From Psammoneis japonica (Eukaryota): a DNA stretch of 53,118 nucleotides. The stretch spans positions 186,001 through 239,118 of the forward strand of contig QPGO01000001.1 of the NCBI GenBank assembly GCA_008632985.1. The letters are read 5' to 3'. This document shows, one piece after another, positions 1 through 43,105 of the stretch (position 1 is its first letter; each line of letters opens with the position of its first letter). The position numbers and the translations under genes were made by a program. The notes beneath the pieces were generated by a model. The model had not been told where the DNA came from, ran no database searches, and was given only the letters and a program-made list of their open reading frames with translations.

Positions 1-1289
1 CGGGAAGAAGGCGCTCCACCTGGTTGATTTTTTCTTTGACATCATTCCCATCATTGGCAAAGCTGAGGGGCTTGTCAAGGCCCTTGTTGGCCACATGCTG
101 ATTGCTGGAAGAGAGCTTGATGCTTCAGAATGTGCGCTCAATGTGCTCTGTGTCCTCTCCATTGTGGCAAAATGCCAAAAGTTAATTTGCCAGGCTGACA
201 GAGTCATGGAGAAAAATGAGCATCTCAAGGCACTCAGAGAAGAGGTTCCCATCCTGAAGGGATGCCTTGCTCTGGTCAGCTGAGCAGAGACAGCCAAACG
301 TCAGGGCTGCAGGTTTGTGCTCAAAATGACACAGCTTGAAATTAAGAAAAACAGAGCTCTGTGTTGTTGAGGACAGACTCAAGGGCTTTGGACCACATTC
401 CCACAGAGGGCAGAGTGGAGCGGATGTCATTTGTTGGAATGGTGATGTGTTGCAGCACAAGTCTCTTGCAGCTCATTGTGTGATCTCGAGAGAGCCATCA
501 ACAAGAAACCAGCTGCAAGCAGCATTGGTTAATGTCTGCATTCCGAAGCAGTGGACAAGAACATTGGCTTCCTTTTTGCATGGATTGTTGATGGGGATCA
601 GCTTTTTAAAGGTTCCAAATGAGTGAAAAAAACACCTGCTCAGAAGGAAATCAAGGATTTTTGCTCAAAACTCACCCAAGAGCTTGGTCAACTGCACAAG
701 AACTTGACCACACCAAAGGGCAAAAAAAGGTCTCATTGTGAAGGTTGAACCACACTTTGATTGAGTTGCTGGGGTGATGGTTGGTGCAGAGATGCAGGAT
801 CCACATTGTTTGTGGTTGTGCAAATGTTGCATTTCATGGAGCGCTTGGCTGTTCTGATCATGACTGCAAATGCTGCCCTTCTTTCCAGAGCTGATGAGCC
901 CTCCTTTGGAATCTCAAAGGCTCTCTGAGACAGACAACATTCCCTCCAATTTCTTGTGCAGATGTGTGCTTGCATGCATTGCTCAAATTGAGCTGGCTCT
1001 CTCTAGAGAGTGTTGCGCGTCTTGCAACAAAACAGAAACCAAAAAGCAACAAGAACGGAAGGTGAATTGAGGCAAAGTGTTCTTTTCCTTGTTGCCTTTG
1101 TGGGACATGTCAACTTTGTGGTGTGTTGCCAATGGCACACTTTCATGGCCTGTGGCATGCCAGATGAAACACTGCCACAACAAAACCAGCACTCCCAAAA
1201 AAGCACAGCTGCGCATTTTACAACCACTCAGTTTGGCGACAATCCATGTGTCAGTGAAGTGGTTCTCGGATGCCAACAAGGACTCTCTG

Positions 1290-1900
1290 CTGTCAGAGCA
1301 TCCTTGTCATCCACCAACCCTTTGGCAATGCTTTTGTGCTGTTCAGCAAAAAAGCATTGTGCAGGGTGACCCACTTGGCATGGTGGCTCATGGACTGGGC
1401 CTTCTCCTGCTGGTGGTCCAAGAGCTGAATGAATGTTTTCAACAGGCTTTCACCCCATGGCATGCTGATGACACCACTGCAGCAAAAAAAGCTGACATCT
1501 CACAGGATTTTTTCTTGACTCTCAAAGATGAAGGCCCCAAGCATGGATGCTGCACTGCTGACAACTCCAAGAATGTCCTGGCAGTCCCAGGGTGCGACTT
1601 GGAAATGCCAGAGCATGCTTTGGAGACCTTGGCTTCACTGTCTGCCAAGGTGGCCACCACCTTGGAGGCTTTGTTGGAGAGACAGATGCACTCGATCTTT
1701 GGTTGATGGAAAAAGCCAATTCATGGACCTCGGTCATTGAAGGACTCACAAAAATTGTGATCAATCACCCACAGACTGCCTGTGCCAGTCTCCAAAAGTC
1801 CCCACAACACCAGTGGCAGCATGTCCAACATGTGGCAAAGGATTGTGATGAATCTTTCATGGAGGCAGAGCATGTGATCCAACACCAATTGGCAAGACCT
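1290..1900 (+). mobile_element. Degenerate non-LTR retrotransposon reverse-transcriptase fragment (copy 1)
   Basis: Translates to VQGDPLGMVAHGLGLL...PWHADD...EGPKHGC, then FGDLGFTVCQGGHHLGGFVG...PQTACASLQKS. These are the QGDPL and YADD RT motifs with Tyr replaced by His/Cys. Frameshifted. Confidence 0.8.
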
Positions 1901-2150
1901 TGGCTGATGACAACCCAAGACTGTCCCTGTCTGCCCTCCCAATCAAATTTGCAGGACCATCCATCCCTCATCCAATGGAGTCCACATCCCAAAAACCACA
2001 AAGTGAGCACTCTTGCATGCTCCCACATGATGGACTCACTTCGAGAAAACTACACCATGGCATAATGCATGCGATGTACGGTCTACAAATGAAAGGTGCT
2101 ACAAACACACAGTGTGACTGATGCAAGAGAATGTAACACAAAATGCATGT

Positions 2151-4171
2151 CTAACTGTCACTTATTGTGAAAGCGTGCGCGGATCCGGACTCCAAACCAT
2201 TGACGTCAGCCCCCCGTGCACCAACTCCAACGACGCTTCCATTTGCCGACAAGGACACGGACCATCCATATTCATCACCTATAGCCTTGTCATTTAAAGG
2301 ATCTCCAACTTGCTTCCATTCGTCTGCATTGCTGTCGTGCTGAAAGATTCGAACCTGACCCGCAAAGACCAACCCATTGACGTCATGCCAACGACTTCCG
2401 ACCGCCAAGACATTCCCATTGCCACTCAACGACACTGAGTAACCAAAATCATCACCAGGCTGTTGTGTCAAGAGAGTTTGGCCACGTTGATTCCATGTCA
2501 AAGTTGAGCGGTCGTACGAATAAACCAAAACTCTCTCGTCGCTTCCAGGTGCACCTGCGGCAACGATCAAGCCACTGTCGTCAAGAGAAACCGACAATCC
2601 AAACTCACCATTAACGACTTGTCCATTGATTGGATCGCCCAACAGATCCCATTTTGACAAGGCAGAATTGTATTCAAACACCGACACTTGACCTGCATTG
2701 CTTCCACCCGAATCATGACCATCTGCTAAAAACGCCGACAATGGTTCCCTGCGCATTCAAGGAAACGGAAGTGCCAAAACGATCATTAGCAGCTTGGCCA
2801 ATGAGTGTTTGTCCGAGTTGGTTCCAGGATGAGGAGCCGCGGTCGTATTGAAACAATCGAACCGATCCAGAATCAGCTCCATTTTCCGTGTCATCACCGT
2901 AAGCTCCCACGGCAAGAATGTCTCCCGCGTCCGAGAGCGACACGGAATCACCAAATAAATCACCAGCGTCTTGTCCAAGAATGTCACTGCCGAGTTGAAC
3001 CCAACTATCCGATGCCGAGTTGTATTCAAACACACGAACGTGACCGGCATTCAATCCGCCACTGTCATTTTCATCCGCTCCAACCGCAAGAATTGTGCCG
3101 TCGCCATTTAACGAAACAGACTCGCCAAATTCGTCACCGCCGGCTTGTCCAATCAATTCTTGGCCAATTTGTGTCCATTGTTGGGTACTTCGATTGTATC
3201 GTTGCACAACAACATAGCCGGGATTGGAAGAAGAAAAGGTCCATTGATCCGCTCCAATTGCCATGACACTGCCATCACGAGACAAGGAAATAGAATTGCC
3301 AAACTTATCATATTCATCTTTGCCGTGTAAGGCTTGACCGACGGGCTGCCAATCGGCGGGAATAACGTTCATTTGAGCTGTAGTTGGAGATTGAGTGGGA
3401 AATAATGTAGGTGGTGTAGTTGTCGTTGGCGCTCCATCCTTGTTCTTTCTGTGGTTACTCGTAGACACAGCAACTGGGGCAGCAACTGCTATTGAAACAA
3501 CCACCAGGGCAACAACTCCAAGTGTAATAATGACGCGTTTGCCACGTCGTTTTCTATCACTGCCATTCTCAGAACCGTCACCATCACTCGCTCGAGCACG
3601 CTCAACTTGTGCAAGAGGCGCAAATCGATCATTCTTTTCTCTTGCCCATATGCCACCTTCTTCGATTTCATTGACTGTTGTAATGTTGTGCTTGCCTCGT
3701 CCACGAAGTACCTCGCCTTCCTCGTCGATAGCAAAGGCCCCAGGAGCCATATCGGGTATACGTCGCAGATCTAAATCGTCGTCTTCTTCTTCCATGTCTA
3801 CACCTCCCTCATAATCGAACATCCCCTCAACTTCGTTAAGATTACAATGATTCACCCGACTGTTCTGATTCTCATGCCGATTCTCATTATTTTCCTTCTT
3901 TGAAGCTGGTGGTTCTACATCACCGTCTTGCTCTTGCCTAGCTTTTTTGTCGCATTTCTGCTTTATGCCTCAACTCATTTTGATGAATGATTCGCTTTTG
4001 ACGTCTCTCACTAGCGGCTTCATCCGCCTCGTTTGCCTCTTGTCTCAAAAATTCTTCTTGAACCAAGTCTTGAGATGCTTCAATTTCCCGTTTCTCCTCT
4101 CCGTCTTCTCTCATGCTGTCAGTACTATCATACCGCTTAGTCGGTGAGTCCTCGCTAGTAGAAGGAGTCAT
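2151..4171 (-). CDS. FG-GAP (integrin-alpha-like) repeat beta-propeller single-pass membrane protein, copy 1; two +1 homopolymer frameshifts (~2728, ~3945)
   Basis: ORFs 3938..4204, 2713..3855 and 2151..2756 join into a paralog of 8222..10279. Repeated FGxSVSLSxDGxxLAVGA motifs and a TM segment VIITLGVVALVVVSIAVAAPV. Removing one base from each homopolymer run restores the frame. Confidence 0.85.
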
Positions 4172-4509
4172 GGATGCTTTTGATTGTGAAATAACAAATA
4201 ACAAAGTCTGTCGAATCTATGAATGACAACAACTATCGCGTACGAAGCAGGTATGCGCAGGACCAAATGTCTTGAAATCGAGAACCCTTGTCAGCATGCT
4301 CATCATCAGACATCAGGGCAGTTAAGTGACACGAGGGTTCGCATCTTCCCATGGTGCACCAAAGGTGTCACTGACAATCATCACATGTTATTCGTCACGT
4401 CGATTGCTTTGCATCGAACGTTCCGTGTCGCGGCGCTGCAACGAAATGGCCTTTTTGTTGTCTCATTGTGATGCTCGTTGGGTCAGGGTCGGTCAGCGTT
4501 GATTATGGT

Positions 4510-5230
4510 GGGCGGGGGGCGGCGTGCCGGTTCACGCGCGACACCTGCCACGCAGCCGACGAACGCTGCGCTTTTTCTTTTTTTTTTCGCCTTTTTTTTT
4601 TCACACCAGCACACCATGGGAAAATGGTTCCCAATCTCACAGTGGACAATCACTCACTTTTCACTGTGCCCCACTTTTGCGAGCTTGGCCAAAGTCAGAT
4701 GTCCCAGATGGGAGTGGGCCACAGTGATCTCAAGCTGAAGTTGGCCACAGCCACAAAAACAGAACAGGGTGCATCAGCTCTGCCTTGCTTTGATGCACTG
4801 CACCCCACTCTGCACAGCACAACCAAGCTGCTGCATCACCAAGAGAAACAAAGTGTCCCAAGCAACCACAACCATCTTGAGAGTGATGAGCTGCAATTGC
4901 ATGGACAAAAATGATTTGCCCAACTGTTTTGGGTCTCTCACACCACCAGCTCTTGTGATTTTTCTTCTTCAAAGCTGGCGGTCCTGCACCACTGGTGTCT
5001 TTCTGCAAAAGTTGCTGCTCTCATCACAGTTGTGCATGTGCCATCAACTCCTCTTGATGAGAGATGATGCATTGTTCCCACCTGTCCTTGTTGTTGCTGT
5101 CACAGTTGCCATGCATCAAAGTGTTTCCCCTTTTCTTCTTTGGTGCAATTGCGCTTGTTGTTGCCATTGTTCATTGCTGTTGTTCCATGCTTCTTTTTGC
5201 TTCAAACACTTTTGGCAGCACATGTGAGGA
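4510..5230. repeat. TpA/CpG-depleted island of unknown origin (insertion in duplication unit 1)
   Basis: Almost no TA dinucleotides, TG/CA-rich, and absent from the equivalent position in unit 2. Confidence 0.5.
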
Positions 5231-5816
5231 CACAAGACTGAAAACACATGCACGCACCTGCATGATGTCCCCCAAGTGCAGCTGAAACACGAGGACCACA
5301 CCCCATGACTTGAGCGGGCAGGAGGTCTTCCAATTTGAGGGGTGTGGAGGAGCCCGCTTTCCCGGGTCATTGAGAAGGATCTCAGTCGCAGAGGTGCGAT
5401 CGAAATTGTTCCACCATTTTGTGGCTCCCTCTTTAGAATTGTGTCATTGGAACTCATTCTCTTGGACATGCTGTTTTTTTTTTTTTCAATTGAAGTGTTG
5501 CCCATGTGCATTGCGCCCGTCATTGAGGAGGATCTCAGTCACGGTTTCAATCCGAATTATCCCGCCATTTCGTAGCTTCCTCTCTAGAATTATGATGTTG
5601 GAACTAATTGTCTTGGACACGATGTTGTTTCCAAAAAGGTTTTCCTCAGAAAGAGAGAATGACAGTGGCTGGCATTCTGTGGCTGCACGGCAAGATTTTA
5701 AAAAACAATTTGAAAACATGGTGCGGTGGCCTTGGTTGAACCACATTCATTAACTTCCCCACTCACTCAAATCACAAACATGCACACACAAAATACAATG
5801 TTGTTTCACTCTCTTC

Positions 5817-6198
5817 TCAACATGCAATGTTTCCCTTTTTTGTTTCACACCACTCATTGACAAAACAACAAACAAGAAAGTACGATGCCGAAATGCTGAA
5901 ATCACACCAAACATGTCCACCAATGTCCTTCATGTCGGCACATTTGAGTGCCAGCAACCATCCCACACAAGTCGTCAAGATGGAACTGCCCCACACGGAC
6001 ACCGAATGGGCACACGGATTGGCCCGTTTGGCAGCCTTGTCCCACACAAACAATTGACAAATGGCCGATGCGAGATGCGCCAACGTGAAGACAATGGCAA
6101 AGGAATGTTGAATGGAACTCACACCCAACATTTCCACCGCCACCCATGCGGCAATGCCGGAAAACAACATGGAAAAGATCCAATTGTTGGCAGCCGGT
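5817..6198 (-). pseudogene. Truncated duplicate of the 3' end of the membrane-protein gene at 10815-12432, TpA-hypermutated
   Basis: Reads ...AHLASAICQLFVWDKAAKRANPCAHSV...GGHVWCDFSISASYFLVCCFVNEWCETKKGNIAC versus the source ...AYLVSAIYQLFVWDKATKRANPYAYSV...GGHVWYDFSISASYFLIYYFVNERYETKKGNIAY. Confidence 0.92.
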
Positions 6199-7369
6199 GC
6201 TGGAAGAGAGCTTGATGCTTCAGAATGTGCACTCAACATGCGCTGTGTCCTCTCCATTGTGGCAAAATGCAGAAAGTTGGTTCGCCAGGCTGACAGAGTC
6301 ATGGAGAAAAATGAGCATCTCAAGGCACTCAGAGACAAGGTTCCCATCCTGAAGGGATGCTTTGCTCTGGTCTGCCAAGCAGAGACAGCCAAAAATGCTG
6401 AACAATGTCAGGGCTGCAGGTTTGCACTCAAAATGACACAGCTTGAAATTAAGAAGAATGGAGCTCTCAGTGTCATTGAGGAAAGACTCAAGGGCTTTGG
6501 ACCACATTCCCACAGAGGGCAGAGCAGAGCGGATGCCATTTGTTGGAATGGTGATGTGTTGCAGCACAAGTCTTGCAGCTCATTGTGTGATCTCAAGAGA
6601 GCCATCAAGAAACCAGCTGCAAGCAACATTGGCCGGTGTCTGCATTTGGAAGCAGCAGACAAGAACATCAGCTTCCTTTTTGCATGGGTTGTTGATGGAG
6701 ATCAGCTTTTGAAAGGTTCCAAATCAGTGAAAAAACCACCTGCCCAGAAGGAAATCAAGGACAAATGCTCAAAACTCACCCAAGAGCTTGGTCAACTGCG
6801 CAAGAATTTGACCACACCAAAGGGCACAAAGGTCATTGTGAAGGTTGAACCACACTTTGATTGAGTTGCTGGGGCAATGGTTGTTGCAGAGATGCAGGAT
6901 CCACATTGTTTGTGGTTGTGAAAAAGCAGCATTTTGTGGAGCTCACTTGGCTCTGTTCTGATTACAACTGCAGATGCTGTCCTTCTTTCCAGAGCTGATG
7001 AGCCCTCCTTTGGAATCTCAAAGGCTTTCTGAGACAGATGACATTCCCTCCAAAATTTCTTGTGCAGATGTGTGCTTGCATTCACTGCTCAAATTGAGCT
7101 GGCTCTCTCCAGAGAGTGTTGCATTTCTTGCAAGAAAATAGAAACAAAAATCTGACAGGAATGGAAGGTGAATTGAGGCAAACTGTTCTTTTCCTTGCCT
7201 TTGTGGGAGTTGCAAATGACACACTTTCATGACCTGTGGCATGCCAGATGAAACACTGCCACAACAAAACCAGCACTCCTGAAAGAGCACAGCTGTGCAT
7301 TTTACAACCACTCAGTTTGGCATCAATCCATGTGTTGGTGAAGTGTTTTCTCCGATGCTGACAAGGACT

Positions 7370-7970
7370 CTCTGCCATTGGAGCATCCTTGTCATCCACC
7401 AACACTTTGGCAATGCCTTTGTGCTGTTCAGCAAAAAAGGCATCATGCAGGGTGACCCACTTGGCATGGCAGCTCATGGACTGGGCCTTCTCCCACTGGC
7501 CCAAGAGCTGAAGGAATGTTTTCAAGAGGCTTTCACCCTGTGGCATGCTGATGACTCTCCACTGAAGCAGAAAAAGCCAACACCCCACAGGATTTTTTCT
7601 TGACTCTCAAAGATGAAGGCCCCAAGCATGGATGCTGCACTGCTGACAACTCCAGTCCCAGGGTGCAACACTTGGAAATGCCAGAGCATGCTTTGGAGAC
7701 CTTGGCTTCACTGTCTGCCAAGGTGGCCACACCACCTTGGAGGCTTTGTTGGAGAGACAGATTCATGTGACCATTGGTTGATGGTAAAAGCCAAGTCATG
7801 GACCTCGGTCATTCAAGGACTCACAAAAATTGTGATTCGTCATCACCCACAGACTGCCTGCGCCAATCTCCAAAAGTCCCCACAACACCAGTGGCAGCAT
7901 GTCCAACATGTGGCAAAGGATTGTGATGAATCTTTCATGGAAGCAGAGCATGTGATCCAGCACCAATTGG
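7370..7970 (+). mobile_element. Degenerate non-LTR retrotransposon RT fragment (copy 2)
   Basis: SKKGIMQGDPLGMAAHGLGLLPLAQELKECFQEAFTLWHADD; duplicate of 1290-1900. Confidence 0.8.
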
Positions 7971-8221
7971 CAAGACCTTGGCTGATGACAACCCAAGACT
8001 GGCCCTGTCTGCCCTCCCAATCAAATTTGTAGGACCATCCATCCCTCATCCAATGGAGTCCACATCCCAAAACCACAAAGTGATTACATGCTCCCACATG
8101 ATGGACTCACTTCATGAAAACTACACCATGACATAATGCACGCGATGTACGGTCTACAAATGAAAGGTACTACAAAAACACAGTGTGACTGATGCAAGAG
8201 AATGTAACACAAAATGCATGT

Positions 8222-10279
8222 CTAATTGACATTTACTGTGAATGCGTGCGCGGATCCGGACTCCAAACCATTGACGTCAGCCCCCCGTGCACCAACTCCA
8301 ACAACGCTTCCATTTGCCGACAAGGACACGGACCATCCATATTCATCACCAATAGCCTTGCCATTTAAAGGATCTCCAACTTGCTTCCATTCGTCTGCAT
8401 TGCTGTCGTGCTGAAAGATCCGAACTTGACCCGCAAAGACCAACCCATTGACGTCATGCCATCGACTTCCGACCGCCAAGACATTCCCATTGCCACTCAA
8501 CGACACTGACCATCCAAACGAATCACCATCCTGTTGCGTCAAGAGAGTTTGGCCATGTTGATTCCATGTCAAAGTCGAGCGGTCGTACGAATAAACCAAA
8601 ACTCTCTCGTCGCTTCCAGGTGCACCCGCGGCAACGATCAAGCCGCTGTCGTCAAGAGAAACTGAACGTCCAAAACTACCAATTAAGACTTGTCCAGTGA
8701 TTGGACTGCCCAGCAAATCCCATCTTGACGGCGTAGAATAGTATTCGTACACCAACACTTGACCCGCATCGATTCCACCCGAATCATTCTCTTCTGCTCC
8801 AACGCCAACAATGGTTCCCTGCGCATTCAAAGAAACGGAAACACCAAAGGAATCAACAGGAGCTTGGCCAATAAGTGTTTGTCCGAGTTGGTTCCAGGAT
8901 GAGGAGCCACGGTTGTATCGAAACAATCGAACCGATCCAAAATCGAAGCCATTTTCCGTGTCATCCCCAGGAGCTCCCACGGCAAGAATATCGCCCGCCT
9001 CCGAGAGCGACACGGAAACACCAAATAAATCACCAGCTTTTTGTCCAAGAACATCGCTGCCGAGTTGGACCCAACGATCCGATGCCGAGTTGTATTCAAA
9101 CACACGAACGTGACCGGCATTCGTTCCGCCACTGTCATTTGCGTCAGCTCCAACCGCAAGAATTGTGCCGTCGCCATTTAACGAAACAGAATTGCCAAAA
9201 CTGTCGCCGCCCGCATGTCCAATCAATTCTTGGCCAATTTGTTCCCATTGTTGGATGCTTGGATTGTATCGTTGCACAACAACATAGCCGGGAGTGGAAG
9301 AAGAAGAGGACCATTGATACGCTCCAATGGCCATGACACTACCATCACGAGACAAGGAGACGGAATGGCCAAAATAATCAGCTGTAGCTTTGCCGTGCAT
9401 AACTTGCCCGACGGGCTGCCACTCAGCAGGAATAACGGTTACTTGAGCAGCAGTTGGAGATTGAGTGGGAGATAATGTAGGTGATGCTCTTGTCGTTGGC
9501 AATTCATTCTCATTCTTTTTGTTGTTACTCGTCAATAAAGCAACTGGGACAGCAACTGCTATCGAAACAACCACCAGGGCAACAACTGAAAGTGCTATAA
9601 TGAATCGTTTGCCACGTCGTCTTCTATCCTTGTCACCCTCAGAACCGTCACTACCCGCTTGGGCGCGCTCCACCGGTGCAAGAGGCGCAAATCGATCATT
9701 CTTTTCTCTCGCATATAGACCCCCTTCTTCGATTTCATTGACTGTTGTAATGTTGTGTTTGCCTCGTCCACGAAGTACCTCCCCTTCCTCGTCGATGGCA
9801 AAGGCCCCCGGAGCGATGTCGGGTATGCGTCGCAGATCTAGCTCATCTTCTTCATTGTCTACGCCTCCCTCATAATCGAACACCTCCTCTTCATCGCCAA
9901 GAGCACAATGACTTATCTGACTATGCTGGTTCTCGCGATGATTCTCATTATTTCCTCTCTTCTTTGATTTGTGAATCCTGCCACTGCGTCGGTTACTGTG
10001 ATTGTTTAAAGCTGATGGTGATTCTACCTGACCGTCTTCTTGCAAATGTTGTTGCTGCTCTCGTCGAAGTTTCGCATATGCCCTTAACTCATCTTGGTGA
10101 GAGATGCGTTTTTGTTCCCGCTTCCTGTTATTGTTGTGCTTGCTGTTAGAGTCGTCATGCGTCAAAGTGGAAGCGCCCCCCTTTTCTTTTTTCTTTTTGC
10201 TCTTGTTCGTTGCTTTCGTTTTGTGCTTCTTTTTGCTCGTCTCTTGTTTGGCAAGAGGTTTGTCAGAGTGATTCTCCAT
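8222..10279 (-). CDS. FG-GAP repeat beta-propeller single-pass membrane protein, copy 2 (intact 685-aa ORF)
   Basis: Charged N-terminus, PGAF motif, TM FIIALSVVALVVVSIAVAVPV, P/T-rich stalk, and six clear FG/YG-x-SVSL repeats. Confidence 0.9.
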   Translation of the reverse strand: MENHSDKPLAKQETSKKKHKTKATNKSKKKKEKGGASTLTHDDSNSKHNNNRKREQKRISHQDELRAYAKLRREQQQHLQEDGQVESPSALNNHSNRRSGRIHKSKKRGNNENHRENQHSQISHCALGDEEEVFDYEGGVDNEEDELDLRRIPDIAPGAFAIDEEGEVLRGRGKHNITTVNEIEEGGLYAREKNDRFAPLAPVERAQAGSDGSEGDKDRRRRGKRFIIALSVVALVVVSIAVAVPVALLTSNNKKNENELPTTRASPTLSPTQSPTAAQVTVIPAEWQPVGQVMHGKATADYFGHSVSLSRDGSVMAIGAYQWSSSSSTPGYVVVQRYNPSIQQWEQIGQELIGHAGGDSFGNSVSLNGDGTILAVGADANDSGGTNAGHVRVFEYNSASDRWVQLGSDVLGQKAGDLFGVSVSLSEAGDILAVGAPGDDTENGFDFGSVRLFRYNRGSSSWNQLGQTLIGQAPVDSFGVSVSLNAQGTIVGVGAEENDSGGIDAGQVLVYEYYSTPSRWDLLGSPITGQVLIGSFGRSVSLDDSGLIVAAGAPGSDERVLVYSYDRSTLTWNQHGQTLLTQQDGDSFGWSVSLSGNGNVLAVGSRWHDVNGLVFAGQVRIFQHDSNADEWKQVGDPLNGKAIGDEYGWSVSLSANGSVVGVGARGADVNGLESGSAHAFTVNVN

Positions 10280-10814
10280 GGTTGCTTAAAATCTGTTGTT
10301 GCATAAAGCGACATAGGAAGCAAACAGTATAATGCGGACACTTCGAATGGCACATGATGTATTGACTATTGACTGTGATGCGATGATGTATACTGTAAGA
10401 CTGTAAGGCTGAAGAAACGCGGATACACCCGCATGACGTCCCCCCTACATATAGATAGAAATGGACCCCGTTACCATCGCTACCACAACCTGTGTATGAG
10501 GCCTTCCGATTTAGGGGGTGGGAGGGAGCCCGCTTTCCCGGGTGCGATCCGAATTATTCCGCCATTTCGTCGCTTTCCTCCCTCTTTAGAATTATATCGT
10601 TGGAACTAATTGTCTTGGACATGATATGTTGTTTCCAAAGGTTTTGCTCACAAAGAGAGAATGACAGTGGCTGGCATTCTATCTACACGGCAAGATTTTA
10701 AAAAGCAATTTGAAAACATAATGCGGTAGCCTTGGTTGAACTATATTCATTAACTTCCCCACTCACTCAAATCACAATCACACACACAAAATACACTTTC
10801 GGCTTCCACTCTTC

Positions 10815-12432
10815 TTAATACGCAATGTTTCCCTTTTTCGTTTCATACCGTTCATTGACAAAATAATAAATAAGAAAGTACGATGCCGAAATGCTGAAAT
10901 CATACCAAACATGACCACCAATATCCTTCATATCGGTACATTTGAGTGCGAGTAACCATCCCACACAAGTCGTCAAGACGGAACTCCCCCACACGGAAAC
11001 CGAATAGGCATACGGATTGGCCCGTTTGGTGGCCTTGTCCCACACAAACAATTGATAAATGGCCGAAACGAGATAGGCCGAAGTAAAGACAATCGTAAAG
11101 GAATGTTGAATGGAACTGACACCCAACAATTCCACTGCACCCATGCGGTAATACCCGAAAATAGTATCGAAAAAATCCAATTGTTGGCGGCCGGTGGAAT
11201 ACCGGCTTCAAAAAAGACAAAGCATGTCAATCCAAACACGACATAATTGGTCAGAGTGGGTTGTGTAACGGGCGGAGCATCCGTCAGTAGTGCCAATAAA
11301 ATCCCCGCCAAACACGGTGCGACCCGTGCACGGAGTGTATTGGAATTCCGATTGGCCACCATGAGTCGTCGTTCTTCTTCGGGATTGATGCGTTTGCCTT
11401 CGAATTTATCGACAACATTTTGCAATTGTCGTACCGATCCCGAATTGACAAAGCGTGCCAAAAACAAGAGGAATGCAACGGAATTGCGCAAGACGTTATC
11501 GTTGGATACGGAAATACCCTTGCGTGTCAAATAACTCAATGCCCAATGAGCAATGCCATGTCCTGCGACACTGTACACTTTGATACTGGATAAAAAGAAA
11601 TCATCCAATCCCAATTTACCCAAATCACCCGTTTCACGCAATTTGAGAAGTGGCAGTGTAAACAACAAATCGGTATACAGCGACAACATGTGCGAATTGG
11701 TCTTTTCCTTTGTGGGATTGCTAATGCAAAATCCATCACAGACATAGCAGGGATCGAGTGTCCCAATATCCAATCCCGGTGGTACATCACACGGTCCCGG
11801 TGTACAGGGTCCTTGCAAATCAAAGGGTGTTCTCATTAACAGTAAAAAGGAAAGACAATCGTGACGTAATTGCCCAAATCACCCCATACAATATACTTGT
11901 CACGTTTGGGAATCACCACGGATTGAACATTGGTCTTGACATCTTCCAATGTTTCCGATACGGTTTTGCTTAAATCTTGTGTTTTGAATTTGTTCCAATT
12001 AAAACCACCACCATTGTTTGTAGTAGTAGAAGTAGTAGTTTGTCGTTTACGTTGATATTGAATCGAACTTCCGGTATCTTCTGTAACGTACTTGTTGGTT
12101 TCGGGTTTGTTATTGAACGTTGTATCACGACTACGACGATTCATGTTTTTGTTGTTGCGACGACCACCACTCGTAGTAGTTGTAGAAGAAAAACTTCCCG
12201 TATGAGTTCTGGGATTTTTATTTCGAGACTTGTTTTTGTTATTGTCATTATTACGTGCACCACCTCGTATTTCCGTAACACGCAATGATGCTGCTTGTCG
12301 GCGAGTAGATGACGTGTGGAGTGACGACGGTATGTTTGTCCAAGTAGTTGTACCGGCGGCGACACAAATCGGCAACAAGGCTACAAAGAATAACGCAAAG
12401 AGCTTATTCTTTATTCCCACTGCTTCTACCAT
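10815..12432 (-). CDS. Multi-pass membrane protein of unknown function (signal peptide; C-terminal GGHVWYD motif); two single-base frameshifts (~11845, ~11137)
   Basis: ORFs 11836..12432, 10973..11836 and 10815..11180 join. One extra T in the T-run gives VFPFLLLMRTP, and the duplicate at 5817-6198 supplies the base missing near 11137 (WVAVE). Confidence 0.75.
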
Positions 12433-12669
12433 GGTTGCTCACGTTATATGAATGATACGTAAGGGGATTGATAACAACAACACACAGCACTGTAACATCA
12501 ACAACAACGCGATGATGCCTTCAACAAGAAAAGATTTGGCGATTGATGGCCCATCATCGGCGGATAATGTGCGTACGTCATCGTTTCATTTCCAAAGCTA
12601 CATGTACGATTACATAAATACTTTAAAAAAAAATAATTGAAAAAGCACACACGCCGAAATGGCGCACCA

Positions 12670-14730
12670 TTACCACTGCCGCCGGCTGTGTGCATGCCAG
12701 ACGCACCCCCTGACGTCTCTACTTGCTCTCCACTGCTGCACCAGCGGAGCAGAGCTGGTCAGATGTCGAAATGTTTTGAAAATTCTTCTTTGTTTTGTCC
12801 ATTTTTAATGTGTGCATTCATTTGCTTTTGTGCGAGAGGCCGTGCTCAGAGGTGTGCTGGCAGATCCTCAAACTCAGCGCAGCTGCCCTCTGAGTTTCAG
12901 AAACCAGCTTTGCCTGCCATGAGCAGTTGCGACTGTCAGAGTGAATTTTTCATCACAGCCTTGTGCTTGTCTCTTGCAATCAAAATGTGCCCCCAGCTTT
13001 GGTCAAGAACAACTCTTTCCAGGGTGGTGCAGATTTCTGCGTGCGCGACAACCCACGAAATTGTTTCATGCTCCCCATTTTGCGAAGCTGAAGGCTTTCC
13101 ATTTTCAACATTCATGAGAGTGAAAATGCTCTAGGCATGTTCTTTAACATCTGTGGAGTGCACCTGGGCAAACCATCAATGATGCACCACAAGTGTGAAG
13201 GAGGAGATGCATTCGTAAAATTGCCTCTTTTTCTGTTGCCCGATCATTCATTTTTTTAATGCTCAACAAATTTTCTGCGGAGCTCGCACATGGAATTCTG
13301 TGGGCCCAATGTCACACGGAGTCCCACCCAAGACTGCAACCCGTCTGGCATGTGTCAATGGCTTGCAAGCAGTTTCATGTGTGTTGTGCCTTGCTGTGCT
13401 TTGAAATGGATTGACCACATTGAAACCTCACATGTCAATTGCACCATGCATGAGTTTGCAAGATGCAACATGCTGTTGATTGTGTTGCAACTCTTCAAGG
13501 CAATGCTGTTGAGAAAACGGCGCAACTGCAGAGCCACCATGGCAAGGTGGTTTCCAGATGCAGTGCACACCAATGGTGAATTTGTGCTGAAACTAAGTTG
13601 TGCTTGTCAAACCAGCATGGCTGCCACATGGTGCATCATGTGCCCACCAAACTCTGAGCTCTGAGTGGAGGGGCAGCAGCAAGAAAATTTTGATTTGGTG
13701 GGAAAAAATTACTCAGGACAGGCAGAGCAGAAAAGCAACAACATCAAGAGCTGCAAACAAGGCAGGAGTGCTGTGCACAATGAAAACAACAACACAGATG
13801 CTCCTCCACTGGGTTCTTGCAGACACACAGTCTCCCAAGTGAGACTGTCCAATGCACTGACATGGCAAGATCATGTGGTCACTCATTGTTAAAAGGAGCA
13901 AATGGGGATTTTGGCTTGACATGACATGGTGGTCACCCAGCTGTGGTGTCTGCAAATTTTGGGAAGTTTTGACACAATCGCGCTGCTTTGCCCTGTGCTG
14001 CTGCAAGGCAAACTCATGTGTGATGATGGCAAAATCACAAAAGCTGGCCTTGGACCAAGAAGACATGTGGGTGATCACAACAATGGTCCCTTGCCATTCC
14101 CAAAGTTGGCATCCTCCATTTTGGGCCTCTTGAGGAAGCAGCGGCTGGCACATCGGGGTTGTTCAGAGATGTGCAAGATGTGCTGCAAAGCTGAGCGGCA
14201 CCCTGCAGAGAGGCATCATGTTGGCTGGACACTGCCCAAGGCAACTGGGCACACCTGAGTCTGAAAGAAATTGTTCAATGCAGTGATCCTTGCCACAGAT
14301 TTGATTGCAGACTTTCTCAGCACCAGCGTCTGTGTGGTGCAAGCCTCCTGCCCGTGCCGCCAGGGGGGAGCAAGAGCCGCCTTTGCTGGAAGAGCAAAAG
14401 AACAAAAAAGACTGGAGATTCAGCGCTCCAAAAGGGGCTTTAACCACTGCAGTTGCCCTGCACAGATGCAGTGGTGCCTGGAGTCAAGGCCGGCAAAATC
14501 AGATTGATGCCAGGGCACCCATTTCTGAGAAGGAGGGTGGCTGCATCACTGGCTGTGCTGGGTTGGGAGGTGCCATCATGAGCATCAGTGACAGCATCAG
14601 CAACACCAGCGGTGACAAGTGTAAAGAGGAAAGTGCACTCAACAATCATCGTGGTGGAGTGAGGCATCAACAACAAGCGATCTGTTCTTGTGCGTTGTTG
14701 ACAATCTGGTTGTGTTCATGATCCGCGTTG
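12670..14730. repeat. TpA/CpG-depleted decayed repeat island, family not recognised
   Basis: Abrupt loss of TA relative to both flanking genes; only Cys/His/Gln-rich junk ORFs. Confidence 0.55.
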
Positions 14731-28539: not shown

Positions 28540-29012
28540 ACCAAGCACGGCAGGTGGTGGTGGTCGAGATGCTGTGGCTCACAGGTTTAGCTGTTGAGTT
28601 TGCGTGTCACAAGCCTCTTGACTGCAACACATGGCTGACTTCAGCATTGGTCAGTTGCAGCTGGTGTGGTCCATCGAGAGGCGGTTGCTCGCAGGTTCAT
28701 TTCAAGGCAGTCGAGGTGGCACAAAAAGTCCCTGCCCAGACTCTCTCGCCGCCAAAGTGCTGCTTCCTGCCTCCACCAACAAGTCTGCCTTTTCTTGGCC
28801 CAGTTGTCTGTCAACCAAAATGACAAGAGCAACTGCTTTGAGCATCGTGTCCTTGTGAAACTGGCCGAGAAATGGAGCAAACTCCACGAGATCCGTCTTG
28901 ACACTCTCCCATCTGCCACACAATGCCTCATCAGATCCAAGATCATGAGATCATGTCAGTCTCGATGCTGTTCCCAGTCAAAGACTTGCAACCTTTTCAA
29001 ACCTTGTGCACC
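28540..29012 (-). pseudogene. TpA-depleted partial duplicate of the TerB-like gene and its downstream flank
   Basis: 28760-29010 aligns with 27605-27840 (KDTMLKAVALV vs KDVILKAMVFV; RHCVA vs RYCVA). 28545-28630 aligns with 26720-26805. Confidence 0.75.
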
Positions 29013-29479
29013 ATCTGAGCCTCCCCGGTGGTGTGTCACACGCCAAATGCTCTGTTGCTTGCACGGCATGAATCATGTGGCGCCCATCATTGAACTGTGG
29101 CAGCACCTCTGGCATGCAGCCACTCAAGCTGTTGGGTGTGGGCAATGAAAGATGAGAGTTCTTGCTCCAACTTTGTTTCTGTTGATAAACTTGACAAATG
29201 CTTGACTGCCAACTGCAAAATCACAGGATCGTTTCTTGGCACTTTGGCTCTGCGAAGGTTGCCATCAACCACCAGGAATGGTGCACTGCAATGTTCTTGA
29301 GCAGCATCAGCCAGACATCCATGGTCACTGGAAAATCTAAAGTCACATCATGACATGGACAACACATCAAATTGCATGCATTGCAGTGGCTGGTGCATCC
29401 TCCACCAATTGATTTGCTTGCTCAATGTTCTGTGGGGCGAGGACAGGCGCACAAAGCAAAATGATCTGGATGTTGGTGA

Positions 29480-31080
29480 TGCATGTCACTCAGCACTCTG
29501 TTCACAAACTGGTGTTCTTGGATGATTGCTGAACAGCCACAGGACTCTGGATCTCCTTGAGCATTGAATGCTCAAAGGCAACTAAAATGACATGGATCAT
29601 CAACAACAGAGGAACAGAAAAGAGGTGGTTCTTCACAATGGCATGAAAAAAGAGACACCACAGCACCCAATTTGTCAGGTTCTTTGTCCTCCTCATGTGG
29701 CAACTCTGCCACACATTGATTGCCTTGAAACAAAAAAATTGCCCTTGTTCAGAGCACACTTCCCTTCCCCAGAAGGACCCATTTTTAAGGCAACAATCAA
29801 GAAAAACAATCAGCAAGCATGACATTGTCTTGGCCATCCACATGCTCAAAAGTTGGAGCAAAATTTTCCACGGAGCAAAAAGCCAAATTGTTGTGGTCAG
29901 CAAAGACAGTGCAGTCACCACCAAGTGACACAATTCAAAATTCTTTGAAGCACATTGCAGCTGCCAGCAACTCATCAAAGAGTTTTGTTGCACAGAACTG
30001 AGCTTGCGGGGTGCCAGCAGGCAATCAGCCTCTGCCATCTCACATGATCACTGCACCTGTTTGGCAGTTGGAGGAGTCAGCACAAATGTGGAATGGGTCA
30101 TTGTGATCAGGGCAAGCCCACAATGTGTCATCCAGCGCCAAACTCATCACATCATCACAGGCTTGCTTTTTGACAGCCACTCCAGTGCATCTGCTCCAAC
30201 TTGCTCTTGTCTGTCAACCACATGAGAGGAGTGAGTGTGTGAGACCAACATCATGGCCACATGTTGTGATGACAGCAGGTTGCTGTGCCAACAAATGGCC
30301 ACAGATGAGCAGTGTTCCAGGGAGGTGCCACTCACAGTGCTGCTCCCAGCTTTTTCTTCCACAGCCCAGCTCTGGTTGGCACCAACTGATGGCCTGGACA
30401 ACCCATCTCTTGGACACACCACTCACCACATGTCATTCTTTGAGTGGATTGACCTTGAGATCATTTTCCTCCTCCAGCCTGAACAACAACTCATCAAGAC
30501 AATGCAGCATGTGAGTGTCAAAATGTTTGTCAAACTGAGCAAGATGTGTCATCAACATGTGCTTCCACATCCAGTCCATTTGCCACTTGCTCAACAATGG
30601 ATTGGGCAACATCTGGCACCGTCTTCAAGCACATTGCAGGATGGCAGTGCCAAAACTTCCTGCATGGCATGACAATGCACAGTTCCTTGGGCTCTTCATC
30701 AAGCTTGCTGTGGCAGCAAAACGCAATTGGATCAAGCTTCATCAAAAAACTTGTGGCCTGATTGTTGGTGTGCAACATCTTGGATCACTGGCAATGAATG
30801 CACTTTGTGCTTGAGGACCTTGTTGAGTTCTCAAAAATCAGACACCCCCAGTGCACTCATCAATCCTTCTCGGGCACAACAAAAGTTTCTGCTGCCCACT
30901 CAGCTGGACCGACTGTGTCTCAAGTGTGCCAATGTCTGTCAGGTGTTGAAGCTCCATCTTCAAGACCGCCTCGTGAGTCTTGTGGCACATCATAAACTTT
31001 AGAGTGAAAACAGGCACAGCACTAGGATCAACTTCCAGTTTGGCCGTCTCATGAGGGCATTTTTGCTGAGGGTTCAATCG
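29480..31080 (-). mobile_element. Degenerate Ty3/gypsy pol remnant (RT and downstream region)
   Basis: KLEVDPSAVPVF...ELQHLTDIGTLE and FLMKLD...KLDEEPKELCIV...AMCLKTVPDVAQSIVEQV...DVEAHVDD (YxDD changed to HVDD). Broken frames; the left limit is approximate. Confidence 0.75.
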
Positions 31081-38829: not shown

Positions 38830-40600
38830 CACCCATCACAACCACTGGCAGCATCTGAGATTTGTTCATGCGATGATGACGCCCCAACCATGAAGACCAA
38901 GCCTTGTCAAATGCTTCAAATGAAAAGGCACTGGCTTCCTCACCGCAAAATGATCCAGAGTCATTTCTTCAGCAGCCAGCTCGAACCATTTGAAATGCTC
39001 CGACAGCTGCACCACTCGAAGCCCACCCAGCGAAGCATGGCAAGTGCCTGCTTTGAAACAACAAAAGAGTGCCATTGGGATCTTCTTTGCTAGATGGGAA
39101 GCAAACTGATTGTTCCACCAAACCACAAAATGCATGACACCCAGAGTCACCTGATGGAAGTCTGCTTTGCCTGCACAAAATTCCGCCAAACAAAGAGGGG
39201 CTCGGCGGCAAAGGTTTTGAAAAGACAAAGTGCCACAGAGTGTCATTTTCTACATTTCAATTGAGTGCATGCACCTTGAGTTTTATGACCATGAACTGTC
39301 AAACAATGTGATGAGCTGGAACTTGGAGACAAGAAGAGCGTTGTTTGCAGGGGCGGCACCCGATGGAAAAGCAACTTTTTCTGGCTCATTGCTGTGAATG
39401 GTCTTTGTGACAACATCTCACATGAGAATCTTTGCATTGTTCTACAAATGTTGGAATGGGAGCATGCAGAAATAAACCTTGGCATGCCACTCTCTGATGG
39501 CCAGGGGCTGACAGTGGTCTTCCCATCCTCGACCATTGGGCTGCTGAGAATTGAGCAACAGCTGAAATGATTGTTTGTGTTTGCTTGTGATGGGTCAATC
39601 CATGTTGGCTCTCATTTTCTGTTGCTGCTGTTGCACTTTGCTTTTTCTTGCACAGTCATGAGTTCAGTCAAGAGCGGCACTTTGTTGATTGGAGATGGAG
39701 GCATTGTTCTTTCAAAAGCATCCCGGTCGGCACAATGCTGCATTTGGCAGAACATGAAAAGTGCCACAAGAGTGTGCAAACACACACCTTGTTCATTGCA
39801 GCATCCACAGCATGAAAAAAGGCACAACAAAAACTGTTTGGCATCAGCATCAAACCCCAAGTAAAATCTGCAGCCTTCCTGTGTCTTCTTTTGCTCCGCC
39901 AATTGCAGGTTTGATGATGCTGCTTCCACCATCTTCATGGATGGAATGCAACAGAGTTTTAATGGCCAAACCAAATTGCCTTTGGCAAGTGTCTTGAAGA
40001 TGCAGAACTCCATCACATCAATGAGCAAACTGTGACCTTGCAACAGCAAGAAACCTTGTTCAACAAGGTTGTGTTCATTGCCTTTTTGGTGTAATTTTTC
40101 AACCAAGCTTGGCAGCGTTGAGTCAAGCTCTGACACGTGATCACAGTGACAACTGTGATCCCAACCCATGGCATTGTCCACTGGCACAATGACCTCATGA
40201 ACCATGAAGGCTGGGATTCTTCTGCTTGATGTTCCAAACAGGTGCATCAAAAAAGAAAAAAAGGAAGCGAAAATGTTTTTGCTGCACAGGGGCCTCTGCT
40301 TGCAAGGCAGCTGTTGTGCCAAAGTGTTTTGGTCCACACTGAAAGAAGCTTTTGAGGTGCAGCCAGCGTGCTGCTTTGCATGTGCAAAAAGATGCTGCAA
40401 CTGCCATGCTCAAGTTGAAGTTGCCCCCTTCTTGTGGAAAGTCCATTGTGACATGTTCACAAGTGATGCAGCGCATGTGACGTCTCCATTTTTTCTCTCA
40501 CTCTTGTTGCACTTCACACACCATTTGTTTCCATTCCGCCTGTTTTCATTGTTCCAGAAGAGAGAGCTCTCACCTTGTGACTTGTGAGATGAAGATGTTC
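38830..40600. repeat. TpA/CpG-depleted decayed sequence, family not recognised
   Basis: Abrupt TA loss after ~38830; junk ORFs only. Confidence 0.5.
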
Positions 40601-41249
40601 TCACCCTGTTGTTGTGTTGCTCTTGTCATCTGGGTCACGTCTGATCAGAGCTTGGTGATCAAGTGCTGCACAGAACTTTTTGAGCCTTGTCTCAGTGACA
40701 GCGACATTCATTGTGATGCATCAGCAAGCAATGTGCAGACAGAGCAGAGCTTGATTTGGTCCAAGTTCTTGGGGTTTTGCTCTCATGTCCCCATGATTTG
40801 TGATGTGAACGGTGAATGTCATGCTTCCTTTGAGTGAAATGACAGTGTGAGTGTGTCTCAGCACAGTGTTGACAAGACCAGGTCACACCTTGGTCTGTCT
40901 GCTGAGATCCGAGCTGCTTGCACTTTGCTCCTGTTGTCTTTGCATTTGGAAATGTCAAGAGCCAGTGAGTCTGGTCTGTCAATTTCCAACTTCACAACTG
41001 TTGGGTCTTGTTGGTGTTGTCACTTGGTGTTGTTCCAAGCCAACACAGGCAAATCTGGCAAGGAAGGCAGAGTTTGCTGCATTGATTTCATGCATGTTTG
41101 TTCCAGCATGACAGCAGTGAATTTCAACTGTTTTCAGTTTTTGGCCAGGCCAGCCATCAGTGTCTTTCCTTTTGTCATGTTTGGGGTGACAAGCACCTGT
41201 GAGAAAGACGAAACTGCCGTTGCACTGATGACACAGATTGGAGCTGATG

Positions 41250-43080
41250 GAGAAGACAGAACTTTCCTCAAAAGAAAACTTTGGTCAGCTCACTCCTCCT
41301 GTGGGGAATGATGACTTGATCACATCCACCACCACTTGCGTGCCAACCGGTTGCCTCCTCTGCACATCACCCAGCTGTTTGAATTGGAGCTGCAACAGTG
41401 TTGCTCACACAAACTCCCAGCTCAGCTCATTCAGTCACATTTCCCACCACATTGCCAACCTTGATCACATGTTGGAAGCCAAGTGTGTTGAAAGTGTCAA
41501 CCAGGGATGTGAGAATTTCAAAATCAACAAAGACTGCCATGTCAAGATGCCCATGACAAAGGCATGCCTTTCTGGGCAGTGCCCATCTGAAGCAGAATGG
41601 TGCAAGACAGACCCCGGCTGCAGCATCTCTCCTTGCCAAGAACCGGGTGGAAAGATGAAAGGAGGCCATGTTGCCCTTTTTGTCATTTTGGGCTTTGTTG
41701 TCTTTGTTGCCATTTTCTGTGGCATTCATGCATGTCATGTGGCAAAGCAAAAGAAGCGTTGCCAAAAAATCTTTGCCAAGTGAGTTGCAGCAACAATGAG
41801 TGTGTGTTCATCTGACTTGTTCCAGACTTAGGTGCCCTCACGCGCGAAAAAATGACCCTTTTCGCATGAAACGCGCGGTCCACACTTGCGGTACCATTTT
41901 CGATAGTAAAAACATAACAATTTTCAAATGTGTTGTTATGGGTACATACAGAAAGGTCTTGTGCGTGTACCCATGTATTCGAAACTGTCGATGGACTCAG
42001 TTGTTAGTCCCTAAATTGTACCGCAAGTTGAGAGCTCTGTTTTCCGAGGAGCGATTTATAGATGTCTAAATGTGTGTAGAAACGTATAAAATATTATTCT
42101 TATATATAAATTAACCCTCCAACATAACATAATTAATCTTTGGTTACAATGCGCGAATACAACTTTGATTCAACGGATCGAATAAAACATACGTTGATTT
42201 ATAAGTTTCGGACGACGTGAGAAGAAGGGTAGCTCAGCCCACGCAATGGCGTCGACTTCGGACCATTTTTCACTGTTTAAGAGGCATAAACAATTGAGAC
42301 ACTTGAATCCGTCGAATATATTGAGGAAGTATACATGGTAATGGCAAAGAAATTGTCCTTAGAGGCAAATTGTGAGTGAATTGAGGCTCAATTGTTGTTG
42401 CTGACAGATTTAGTATTATTGTGCCGCGCTGCAACCTGTAACAAGCATTTTCACTATTGTTGTTGATGCCATAGACTATATCAAATACGGAGGTCCTCGT
42501 CATGACATTAAATTTTCCATAAGGCTGAAAAAAGTGGGCCGTCATGGTCACTGAAAGCCATGGCCGGTTTGGCTGTTTGTTTGTTCGAGTTTATTCTGTT
42601 TATTTTACTTATAAGCAATTAATATGATCAATATGATGAAATATGTACGATGTTGTATAAAGCATAAAAAAATTTTTTTCTGCGAAAAGGGGCATGTGCG
42701 CGCCACCTAAGTCTGGAACAAGTCATCTGCACACAGTTTGTCTCCCAAGGCTCTGGCATCAGAGAGTTCAAAAAGATTGATGAAACAGGCAGTGGAAGAA
42801 AAATCACAAAAGAGGAGCTCTGGGCATTTCTCAGCACTGGCAAGGCTGGAAAAATGTCTGAGTCTGATTTCAATGCATTGTGGCAAGTCATTGACAGCAA
42901 TGACAGTGGGAGTGTGGTGCGTTTTGCTTTCAGTCCAGTCTTGCACACAGGAAAAAATGCATTTTTTGGTTTCCCACAGTTTCTTGAAACTTTCAGCTTG
43001 CAGGATTTCCTTGAGTTCTGTGCATTCTTGGATGGCTGTGTGGATGGGTGCAATGCCGCGAGAGTGAATTGCACCATGTC
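41250..43080 (+). pseudogene. Decayed host-type gene for a membrane protein with C-terminal EF-hands, interrupted by a MITE
   Basis: ...EWCKTDPGCSISPCQEP...TM(VALFVILGFVVFVAIFCGI)...KIFAK*VAATMSV / SAHSLSPKALAS...FKKIDETGSGRKITKEELWAFL...DFNALWQVIDSNDSGSV...DFLEFCAFL. Removing 41814-42724 plus one TSD restores continuity. The 5' limit is uncertain. Confidence 0.7.
41814..42724. mobile_element. Non-autonomous DNA transposon (MITE-like, 911 bp) with 21-bp TIRs and 4-bp TSD ATCT
   Basis: GACTTGTTCCAGACTTAGGTG at 41814 and its reverse complement CACCTAAGTCTGGAACAAGTC ending at 42724. ATCT lies at 41810-41813 and 42725-42728. AT-rich non-coding interior. Confidence 0.9.
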
Positions 43081-43105
43081 TGTTTCCAAACTTTCCATTT
43101 GTCAC

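Follow-up and report, generated by a model that had tools for sequence, protein, structure and literature searches.

One-sided loss of TpA dinucleotides from a tandemly duplicated gene end in Psammoneis japonica

The stretch analysed here (the window, to which all positions refer) comprises 53,118 nucleotides of contig QPGO01000001.1 of Psammoneis japonica. It carries a tandem duplication in which the end of a conserved membrane-protein gene is present twice, once within the source gene (copy B) and once as a truncated duplicate (copy A) that lies in a domain nearly free of the dinucleotide TpA. TpA has been lost from copy A and not from copy B. The features of the duplicated region are listed below, with ratios of observed to expected dinucleotide counts given as o/e and open reading frames as ORFs.

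103-2050, plus strand: reverse-transcriptase-like relic, copy 1, at the start of duplication unit 1
2051-4504, minus strand: FG-GAP paralogue 1, TpA and CpG normal, ORF split near 2713-2756
4504-8084, no strand: TA-free, CpG-poor domain of 3.6 kb with copy A inside, delimited by TpA positions and o/e
4997-5201, minus strand: orphaned and decayed 5' coding end of the FG-GAP gene (79% identity to 10034-10237), inside the depleted domain
5550-5816, minus strand: non-coding 3' flank of copy A, partially depleted (TpA o/e 0.34)
5817-6199, minus strand: coding part of copy A, a truncated duplicate of the membrane-protein gene that covers its last ~127 codons, with TGA as stop codon
6198-6199, no strand: duplication junction, with a 2-base microhomology (TG) common to 103-104 and 11195-11196
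6199-8084, plus strand: reverse-transcriptase-like relic, copy 2, abutting copy A (TpA o/e 0.05, CpG o/e 0.08)
8085-10285, minus strand: FG-GAP repeat gene, paralogue 2, with a 687-codon ORF at 8222-10285 (PF14312, E 2.8e-33), TpA and CpG normal
10550-10814, minus strand: 3' flank of copy B, with 15 TpA (o/e 0.61)
10815-11196, minus strand: copy B, the duplicated part of the source gene, with a normal TpA content (22, o/e 0.75)
10815-12438, minus strand: the whole source gene, a conserved membrane-protein gene with relatives in diatoms, delimited by its ORFs and by nine homologues of 395-432 amino acids

The duplication is visible as two sets of direct repeats: 103-3900 recurs at 6198-9961, about 6100 bases away, and 5576-6082 recurs at 10578-11080, about 5000 bases away. 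Unit-to-unit alignment gives a unit 1 of 103-6199 and a unit 2 of 6199-11196, each composed of an element poor in TA and CG, a minus-strand FG-GAP gene, a spacer and the gene fragment. The 2-base microhomology at the junction is what a duplication at the DNA level would be expected to show. Unit 1 contains an insert of about 1 kb (3970-4996) that has no counterpart in unit 2. A sequence-only reading of this DNA had drawn attention to the gene end and its truncated duplicate. The pair is as it was described there, yet it represents one end of a 6.1-kb tandem duplication, and the homology also takes in about 265 bases of 3' flank that were absent from the ranges given. The similarity of copy A to copy B ends at 6199.

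For the main comparison, 5550-6199 (copy A) was aligned with 10550-11196 (copy B), which yielded 642 aligned bases, 562 of them identical, and 10 gap columns. The strings and peptides quoted in the sequence-only reading are all found at their coordinates, e.g. AAATAATAAATAAG in the source versus AAACAACAAACAAG in the copy and ATATCCTTCATATCGGTAC versus ATGTCCTTCATGTCGGCAC. The peptide pairs (source/copy) are AYL/AHL, IYQ/ICQ, PYAY/PCAH, VWYD/VWCD, IYYF/VCCF, RYE/WCE and AY*/AC*, and the stop codon is TAA (10815-10817) in the source and TGA (5817-5819) in copy A. The largest class among the 80 substitutions consists of 29 sites that are TpA in the source and TG (12) or CA (17) in copy A; there are no sites where a TpA in copy A stands opposite TG or CA in the source (29 vs 0, two-sided binomial p 3.7e-9). 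The other substitutions are 8 sites with CpG in the source and TG or CA in copy A, 2 sites with CpG in copy A and TG or CA in the source, further transitions that are weak in the source and strong in copy A (10) or the opposite (4), and 27 transversions. The change is specific to TpA, which accounts for 29 of the 80 differences, yet makes up 74 of the 642 aligned bases.

Copy A retains 8 of the 37 TpA that the source holds across the aligned stretch. In the coding part 21 of the 22 source TpA have become TG or CA, one is kept (at 5881, the single TpA left there; o/e 0.04) and none has changed in reverse, while in the non-coding flank 8 of the 15 have been lost and 7 kept, again with no reverse case. 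The asymmetry put forward in the sequence-only reading, according to which only the promoterless copy is altered, is thus borne out overall and in the non-coding flank (8 vs 0), so neutral TA sites have been lost unequally, and TpA is as frequent in the source as in ordinary genic DNA (o/e 0.61-0.75). That account has to be widened in one respect: TA loss is indeed asymmetric, but CpG has also been lost asymmetrically. No context rule that separates kept from lost TpA is apparent among the 37 sites. The successive outcomes (TG or CA) form 10 same-strand runs versus 15.1 expected (z -1.98), which weakly hints at events that changed several sites of one strand.

The direction of the change was polarised with homologous proteins. 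The upstream 301 codons of the source gene, used as a query, identified nine proteins of 395-432 amino acids with 34-44% identity, one of which is labelled MMETSP0009 with a name starting 'Gram', the sole organism label among the matches. A library-wide search with the last 106 codons identified 19 proteins at E <= 0.001, 14 of these at E <= 1e-10. Copies B and A were aligned with 19 homologues (P0001-P0019), the four weakest matches (P0020-P0023) being excluded. The residues opposite the tyrosines of copy B are as follows.

Position 21 (His in copy A): Tyr in 19/19 homologues, no other residue
Position 44 (His in copy A): Tyr in 19/19, no other residue
Position 78 (Cys in copy A): Tyr in 18/18, no other residue
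Position 90 (His or Cys in copy A): Tyr in 14/18, the rest Phe
Position 27 (IYQ in the source, ICQ in copy A): Tyr in 11/19, Cys in 3, Thr in 3, Phe in 1, His in 1
Position 91 (His or Cys in copy A): Tyr in 8/18, others various
Position 42 (His or Cys in copy A): Tyr in 1/19, others various
Position 97 (His or Cys in copy A): Tyr in 0/17, others various
Position 106 (His or Cys in copy A): Tyr in 0/4, others various

Because Tyr is invariant among the homologues at positions 21, 44 and 78, the direction is from TA to TG or CA in copy A. At the conserved positions the homologues thus have Tyr and not the Cys or His that, according to the sequence-only reading, would have spoken against its direction of mutation; at one variable position such residues do occur, and the IYQ/ICQ position is by itself not decisive because 3 of the 19 distant homologues carry Cys there. 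Read from protein alignments, the direction is set independently of any transposon consensus.

The depletion is confined to the domain in which copy A lies. TpA o/e is 0.03-0.05 on both sides of copy A, while the genes next to the domain have 0.43-0.75; for the left neighbour (4504-5549) the TpA o/e is 0.03 and the CpG o/e 0.42, and for the spacer of unit 2 (10286-10549) the TpA o/e is 1.13. In both units the TpA content becomes normal at homologous places: the first TpA, at 2051 and at 8085/8122, are found just past the points where the FG-GAP ORFs end on their 3' side (2151 and 8222). A comparison of the orphaned FG-GAP 5' end at 4997-5201 with 10034-10237 gave TpA changes of 3 vs 0 and CpG changes of 7 vs 0, and with this segment included the TpA changes amount to 32 vs 0.

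The decay of CpG in copy A (8 vs 2, p 0.11; 15 vs 2 with the segment 4997-5201 added, p 0.002) is slower than that of TpA. Within copy A, 29 of 37 TpA but 8 of 25 CpG have been lost (p 5e-4), and expressed as -ln of the fraction kept (1.53 vs 0.39) the loss of TpA is about 4 times faster. The remaining 41 differences, spread over some 500 other positions, give a background of about 4% per lineage, over which the per-base rate at TpA is raised about 20-fold, as a rough ratio from substitution counts.

Several observations concern the build of the domain. A cluster of nine surviving TpA is found at 5558-5881 within the otherwise TA-free DNA; farther right the few remaining TpA lie at 6450, 6963, 7139, 7303, 7785 and 8030. 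The left limit of the depletion falls within the insert of unit 1 (3970-4996), which lies between the body of FG-GAP paralogue 1 and the old 5' end of that gene; the first half of the insert (to ~4504) is TpA-normal, CpG-rich and possibly a new 5' end, and the second half is TA-free. Unit 2 has a single copy (10498-10634) of a short sequence of ~110-150 bases (with ...CCGAATTAT.CCGCCATTTCGT... in it), and unit 1 has two tandem copies (5322-5481, 5519-5630), the extra copy being TA-poor.

Copy A itself is a host-derived fragment without a promoter that adjoins a reverse-transcriptase-like relic. In a feature-based look-up, the ORF at 1071-1706 in the twin of this relic (copy 1) was placed with reverse-transcriptase clusters (0.96 and 0.94); the former shares 173 features and has Bacillariophyta as its commonest taxon, and in the latter RVT_1 is present in 86% of the members. 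The relic ORFs also carry GDPLGM...HADD, a motif spotted by eye, in which HADD would be a YADD box with the Tyr turned to His. A Pfam search of the relic at E up to 1 gave chance-level matches only, none of 1685 candidates reached E <= 0.001 in a homologue search against longer proteins, and tblastn of the relic ORFs against 11001-53118 of the window gave no match. We therefore refer to the element as reverse-transcriptase-like.

The two FG-GAP paralogues provide an internal control, as they arose in the same duplication event, form a pair three times longer than the gene pair and are depleted in neither copy. Between 2013-3900 and 8084-9961 there are 228 substitutions in ~1875 positions, and 35 TpA and 82 CpG are retained in both copies. 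The changes are symmetric for TpA (14 vs 10) as well as for CpG (21 vs 19), TpA o/e is 0.46 and 0.43, and the difference from the gene pair (29:0 vs 14:10) is significant in Fisher's test (p 1e-4). Homology alone is not the trigger, because this co-duplicated pair keeps its TpA in both copies. FG-GAP paralogue 1 consists of two overlapping ORFs (2151-2756 and 2713-3969) through a 1-base indel relative to paralogue 2; read contigs show no indel at 2713-2756, but the coverage there is by many similar contigs. The TpA and CpG contents of this split paralogue are nevertheless normal.

The element copies, compared over 103-2000 and 6198-8072, are both depleted, with 6 TpA each. Sites with TG in one copy and CA in the other number 23 in the element pair, whereas the FG-GAP pair has 3 and the gene pair 1. 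As such sites are expected from the independent resolution of one ancestral TpA or CpG, part of the erosion went on in both element copies after the duplication.

A second pair in which one partner has been altered is formed by the long terminal repeats (LTRs) of a retrotransposon elsewhere in the window.

43105-43384, no strand: 5' LTR of the retrotransposon, with 4 TpA vs 17 in its twin at 49941-50220

All 12 internal differences of the LTR pair are TA in one LTR and CA (9) or TG (3) in the other, with 20 CpG in each. The FG-GAP and LTR pairs together agree with the proposal of the sequence-only reading that the targeting does not follow homology pairing. The interior of the retrotransposon (43001-49000) has a GC content of 0.56-0.60, a TpA o/e of 0.07-0.17 and a normal CpG o/e (0.75-0.96), which would fit a loss of TpA that precedes CpG decay in young elements.

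These observations suggest the following course of events. A tandem duplication of ~6.1 kb copied the relic, the FG-GAP gene and the spacer together with the 3' flank and final ~127 codons of the membrane-protein gene. The gene fragment lost its promoter and landed in a probably silent domain of 3.6 kb (4504-8084), continuous with the relic. In this domain a regional mutator probably converts TpA to TpG or CpA, i.e. A:T to G:C at TpA on either strand, and would have removed the 29 TpA from copy A alongside the slower decay of CpG in the same DNA. Neither copy B with its flank nor either of the FG-GAP paralogues has been touched, so the process appears to be aimed by the location of the DNA and not by the pairing of similar sequences. 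The duplication, the direction, asymmetry and TpA specificity of the change and its confinement to a domain are shown by the data, as is, through the controls, its independence from homology. We consider a tandem duplication combined with a homology-independent regional TpA mutator, aimed by a silent and probably methylated repeat domain, to be the best explanation of the whole, and a probable one. The domain would be heterochromatic or untranscribed, and the chemistry may be an enzymatic deamination of adenine in DNA, by analogy with what has been proposed for Bigelowiella natans. From the position of the altered DNA, it is plausible that chromatin or transcription state does the aiming.

Some points weigh against this explanation. 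The 'silent domain' is drawn from position and CpG decay, and copy A is depleted unevenly, with 21/22 TpA gone from the coding part and 8/15 from the flank (p 0.004). At 5558-5605, TpA have been kept next to the fully depleted left neighbour, contrary to a simple spreading from there, and simple spreading from both sides was rejected on this account. Cys is present in 3 of the 19 homologues at one Tyr position, and three of the Tyr positions are not conserved. The reverse-transcriptase label rests on the feature look-up and a motif found by eye, the Pfam search, the homologue search and the window comparison having come out empty. If mutations come in bursts, selection could purge whole mutated source haplotypes, flank included. 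Finally, the read contigs of run X1, described below, stem from the same sample and from a platform that is not on record, so they are not fully independent.

The strongest alternative is that TpA lesions arise everywhere and are repaired efficiently in open or expressed chromatin, in which case the asymmetry would reflect an aimed repair rather than an aimed mutator. Such a repair predicts the same pattern, with sharp domain limits at gene ends, and the recruitment of repair to gene bodies by the epigenome is a described idea (MSH6-Tudor fusions, in the part of bioRxiv 10.1101/2024.10.15.618488 that concerns them). However, the promoter and spacer (10286-10549) and the flank of the source (10550-10814) keep their TpA (o/e 1.13 and 0.61), though they are probably untranscribed, and the rate in B. 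natans varied between lines, which its authors, in the relevant passages of their preprint, took as a sign of a regulated process (bioRxiv 10.64898/2026.01.13.699255). We regard an aimed repair as unlikely, though as an alternative to be taken seriously.

Less probable still is a trigger by homology that strikes both partners, as in repeat-induced point mutation (RIP), followed by selection that removes the mutated alleles of the essential source gene and of both FG-GAP genes together with linked neutral sites. The source gene is conserved and is intact in the read contigs, and the occurrence of changes in same-strand runs (10 vs 15.1 expected) hints at multi-site events, both of which agree with it. 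But both FG-GAP paralogues escaped, though one of them would be redundant, and the LTRs, identical at birth, are altered in one partner only. Moreover, the depletion is graded (8/15 vs 21/22) rather than all-or-none, and the giant-virus target in B. natans is single copy according to the preprint's account of it (bioRxiv 10.64898/2026.01.13.699255). Such a trigger therefore seems improbable to us.

We also considered an artefact, in which modified TpA or CpG bases in silent DNA are misread in long-read base calling and kept in the consensus. Residual errors of a long-read consensus are indeed suggested by four 1-base indels relative to the read contigs in 12.6 kb. These contigs come from run X1 of the same sample and contain 0.99 of the sampled words of 5300-6700. 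They equal the window at every base of 4579-9142, a range that includes copy A and the relic, whereas the four indels and 29 substitutions listed for the rest of 1-12600 show that they were not copied from the window. The contigs that correct the indels thus match all of the depleted sequence in copy A and the relic; in addition each site resolves cleanly to TG or CA, and the same signature was obtained from Illumina data in B. natans, in the part of the preprint devoted to it (bioRxiv 10.64898/2026.01.13.699255). An artefact is accordingly very improbable. For a second run of the same sample, X2, the kind of which is only guessed ('DNA?'), contigs fall on 17 of 30 bins (2101-4620 and 7981-12600) and none on 1-2100 and 4621-7980; as missing coverage proves nothing, this run was not used as evidence. 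No contigs came from a third run, X3, and no RNA run is listed as containing 5300-6700.

A reverse direction, in which the source gained TpA from CpA or TpG by a RIP-like C-to-T change and copy A shows the old state, is compatible with a two-copy alignment alone, which is blind to direction, but is refuted outright by the Tyr of the homologues (19/19, 19/19 and 18/18); the ordinary genic TpA content of the source also speaks against it.

The system that a regional TpA mutator resembles most has been described for B. natans, a chlorarachniophyte. In its mutation-accumulation lines, A:T to G:C changes occurred only at TpA (Mettrop et al., bioRxiv 10.64898/2026.01.13.699255), and the hypermutation at TpA that this preprint reports affects DNA of a giant virus and of virophages integrated in the genome. 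Of its two target regions, the larger one is an integrated giant virus that is single-copy and transcriptionally silent, and new mutations were seen arising at about 1000 times background; the authors propose a deamination of adenine in DNA with an ADAT2 homologue as the candidate. Since the larger target is single-copy and silent, the process has no homology requirement there. As far as the preprint's main text describes it, the likeness is as follows: the changes are almost exclusively A:T to G:C at TpA, yield TpG or CpA by strand and are confined to regions; the genomic trace is a loss of TpA with a gain of CpA and TpG; and a second copy is not needed, in line with the 0 reverse cases, the undepleted FG-GAP pair and the single altered LTR in P. 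japonica. The signature thus matches in several ways, and the erasure of TpA in the P. japonica window appears to be the same kind of process.

There are also differences from B. natans, to the extent that the preprint describes that system. The host is here a diatom-like stramenopile, and the target is a host gene fragment and a retroelement relic instead of viral DNA. The depletion goes much further (TpA o/e 0.03-0.05, against a Rho of 0.45 in the viral region) and has CpG decay alongside it, and the process is read from the sequence and not from mutation-accumulation lines. Full-text searches turned up the signature in the B. natans preprint only and gave no description of it in diatoms, the preprint's supplements, which could cover other species, lying outside this scope. 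Two papers that contain both 'diatom' and 'hypermutation' are unrelated, judging by the passages with these words.

RIP in Neurospora and other ascomycetes likewise causes regional, dinucleotide-specific transitions, by which repeats and gene copies are ruined. It requires an enzyme of the RID/DNMT4 type and is tied to a premeiotic stage. In RIP, as summarised in the part of the RIPCAL paper that deals with the process, C:G is changed to T:A, mostly at CpA, so TpA is created, and both repeat partners are mutated (PMC2621366). In comparison with this description, the direction is opposite in P. japonica, where TpA falls to an o/e of 0.04; moreover, one partner is altered (29 vs 0) and the co-duplicated genes escape. 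Relatives of DNMT4 exist in diatoms, where their function is given as unknown, and diatom transposons carry 5-methylcytosine (5mC) through DNMT5a, according to the relevant passages of PMC9998398.

The decay of methylated CpG in silenced transposons by deamination of 5mC has its parallel in the same domain, where CpG has changed to TpG or CpA (8 vs 2 and 15 vs 2). A change of TA to TG or CA, however, cannot come from CpG decay, and CpG loss is slower (8/25 vs 29/37 for TpA); the decay of CpG accompanies the loss of TpA without explaining it. An A-to-G change with a T or U preferred before the edited A is also known from ADAR, which acts on double-stranded RNA, and from ADAT2/TadA, with reported activity on DNA, as the preprint on B. 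natans mentions (bioRxiv 10.64898/2026.01.13.699255). RNA editing of the ADAR type leaves the genome unchanged, whereas the changes described here have become fixed in the genomic DNA and recur in the contigs of X1, a run only guessed to be DNA. Such editing does not account for them, as copy A moreover arose by a tandem DNA duplication and not by retrocopying.

It is possible, though we advance the idea tentatively and with less than even confidence, that diatoms and chlorarachniophytes share a defence in which DNA adenine editing is guided by chromatin domains, so that TpA would be rewritten in silenced DNA, host or foreign, without any sensing of homology and faster than 5mC decays. If true, such a defence would mirror RIP and add an arm that has yet to be described to the genome defences of the SAR supergroup (stramenopiles, alveolates and Rhizaria). 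The locus is a clean natural experiment in this respect, since one duplication produced three sequence pairs that were identical at birth and have met different fates. Host DNA was altered once it had been placed in the wrong neighbourhood, sequence similarity was neither needed nor sufficient, and the erasure of TpA outpaced CpG decay about 4-fold. If the process is enzymatic, it would represent a natural DNA adenine editor aimed by chromatin, and would have consequences for genome defence, for the heterogeneity of mutation rates in major marine primary producers and for the enzymology of base editing. It also matters for annotation, as dead copies look open-framed because of the Tyr-to-Cys/His and TAA/TAG-to-TGA changes.

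The source gene requires a correction of the reading frame. In the window its ORFs overlap (10815-11207 and 10973-11878) and the frame breaks near 11138. The sequence-only reading has to be amended here, as 1-base gaps near 11138 and 11854 interrupt the source frame in the window. In the contigs of X1 an extra base follows each of the positions 11138 and 11854. The first of these bases restores an open frame of 354 codons between 11878 and the TAA at 10815, and the second would, judging by the alignment, join the ORF at 11836-12438. Because the read contigs restore the frame, the breaks in the window are consensus errors or represent one allele. The Pfam search gave no family for the source gene or copy A. 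The homologues are ~400-amino-acid proteins without a Pfam domain, in which the motifs CYVCDGFC and NSHMLSLY are conserved and the C-terminus is Tyr-rich and hydrophobic.

The read contig over the source gene has 9 substitutions and 1 indel relative to the window in 944 bases (11129-11156 and the 11854 region). At 11153 and 11156 it has the bases of copy A, the former being a TA/TG difference; these copy-A-like bases could stem from the other allele, from gene conversion by copy A over a short tract or from a consensus error. Further blocks with a TpA o/e of 0.01-0.18, a CpG o/e of 0.13-0.51 and an excess of CA and TG are found in the window at 13001-14500, 29001-31000, 39001-42000 and 50001-53118.

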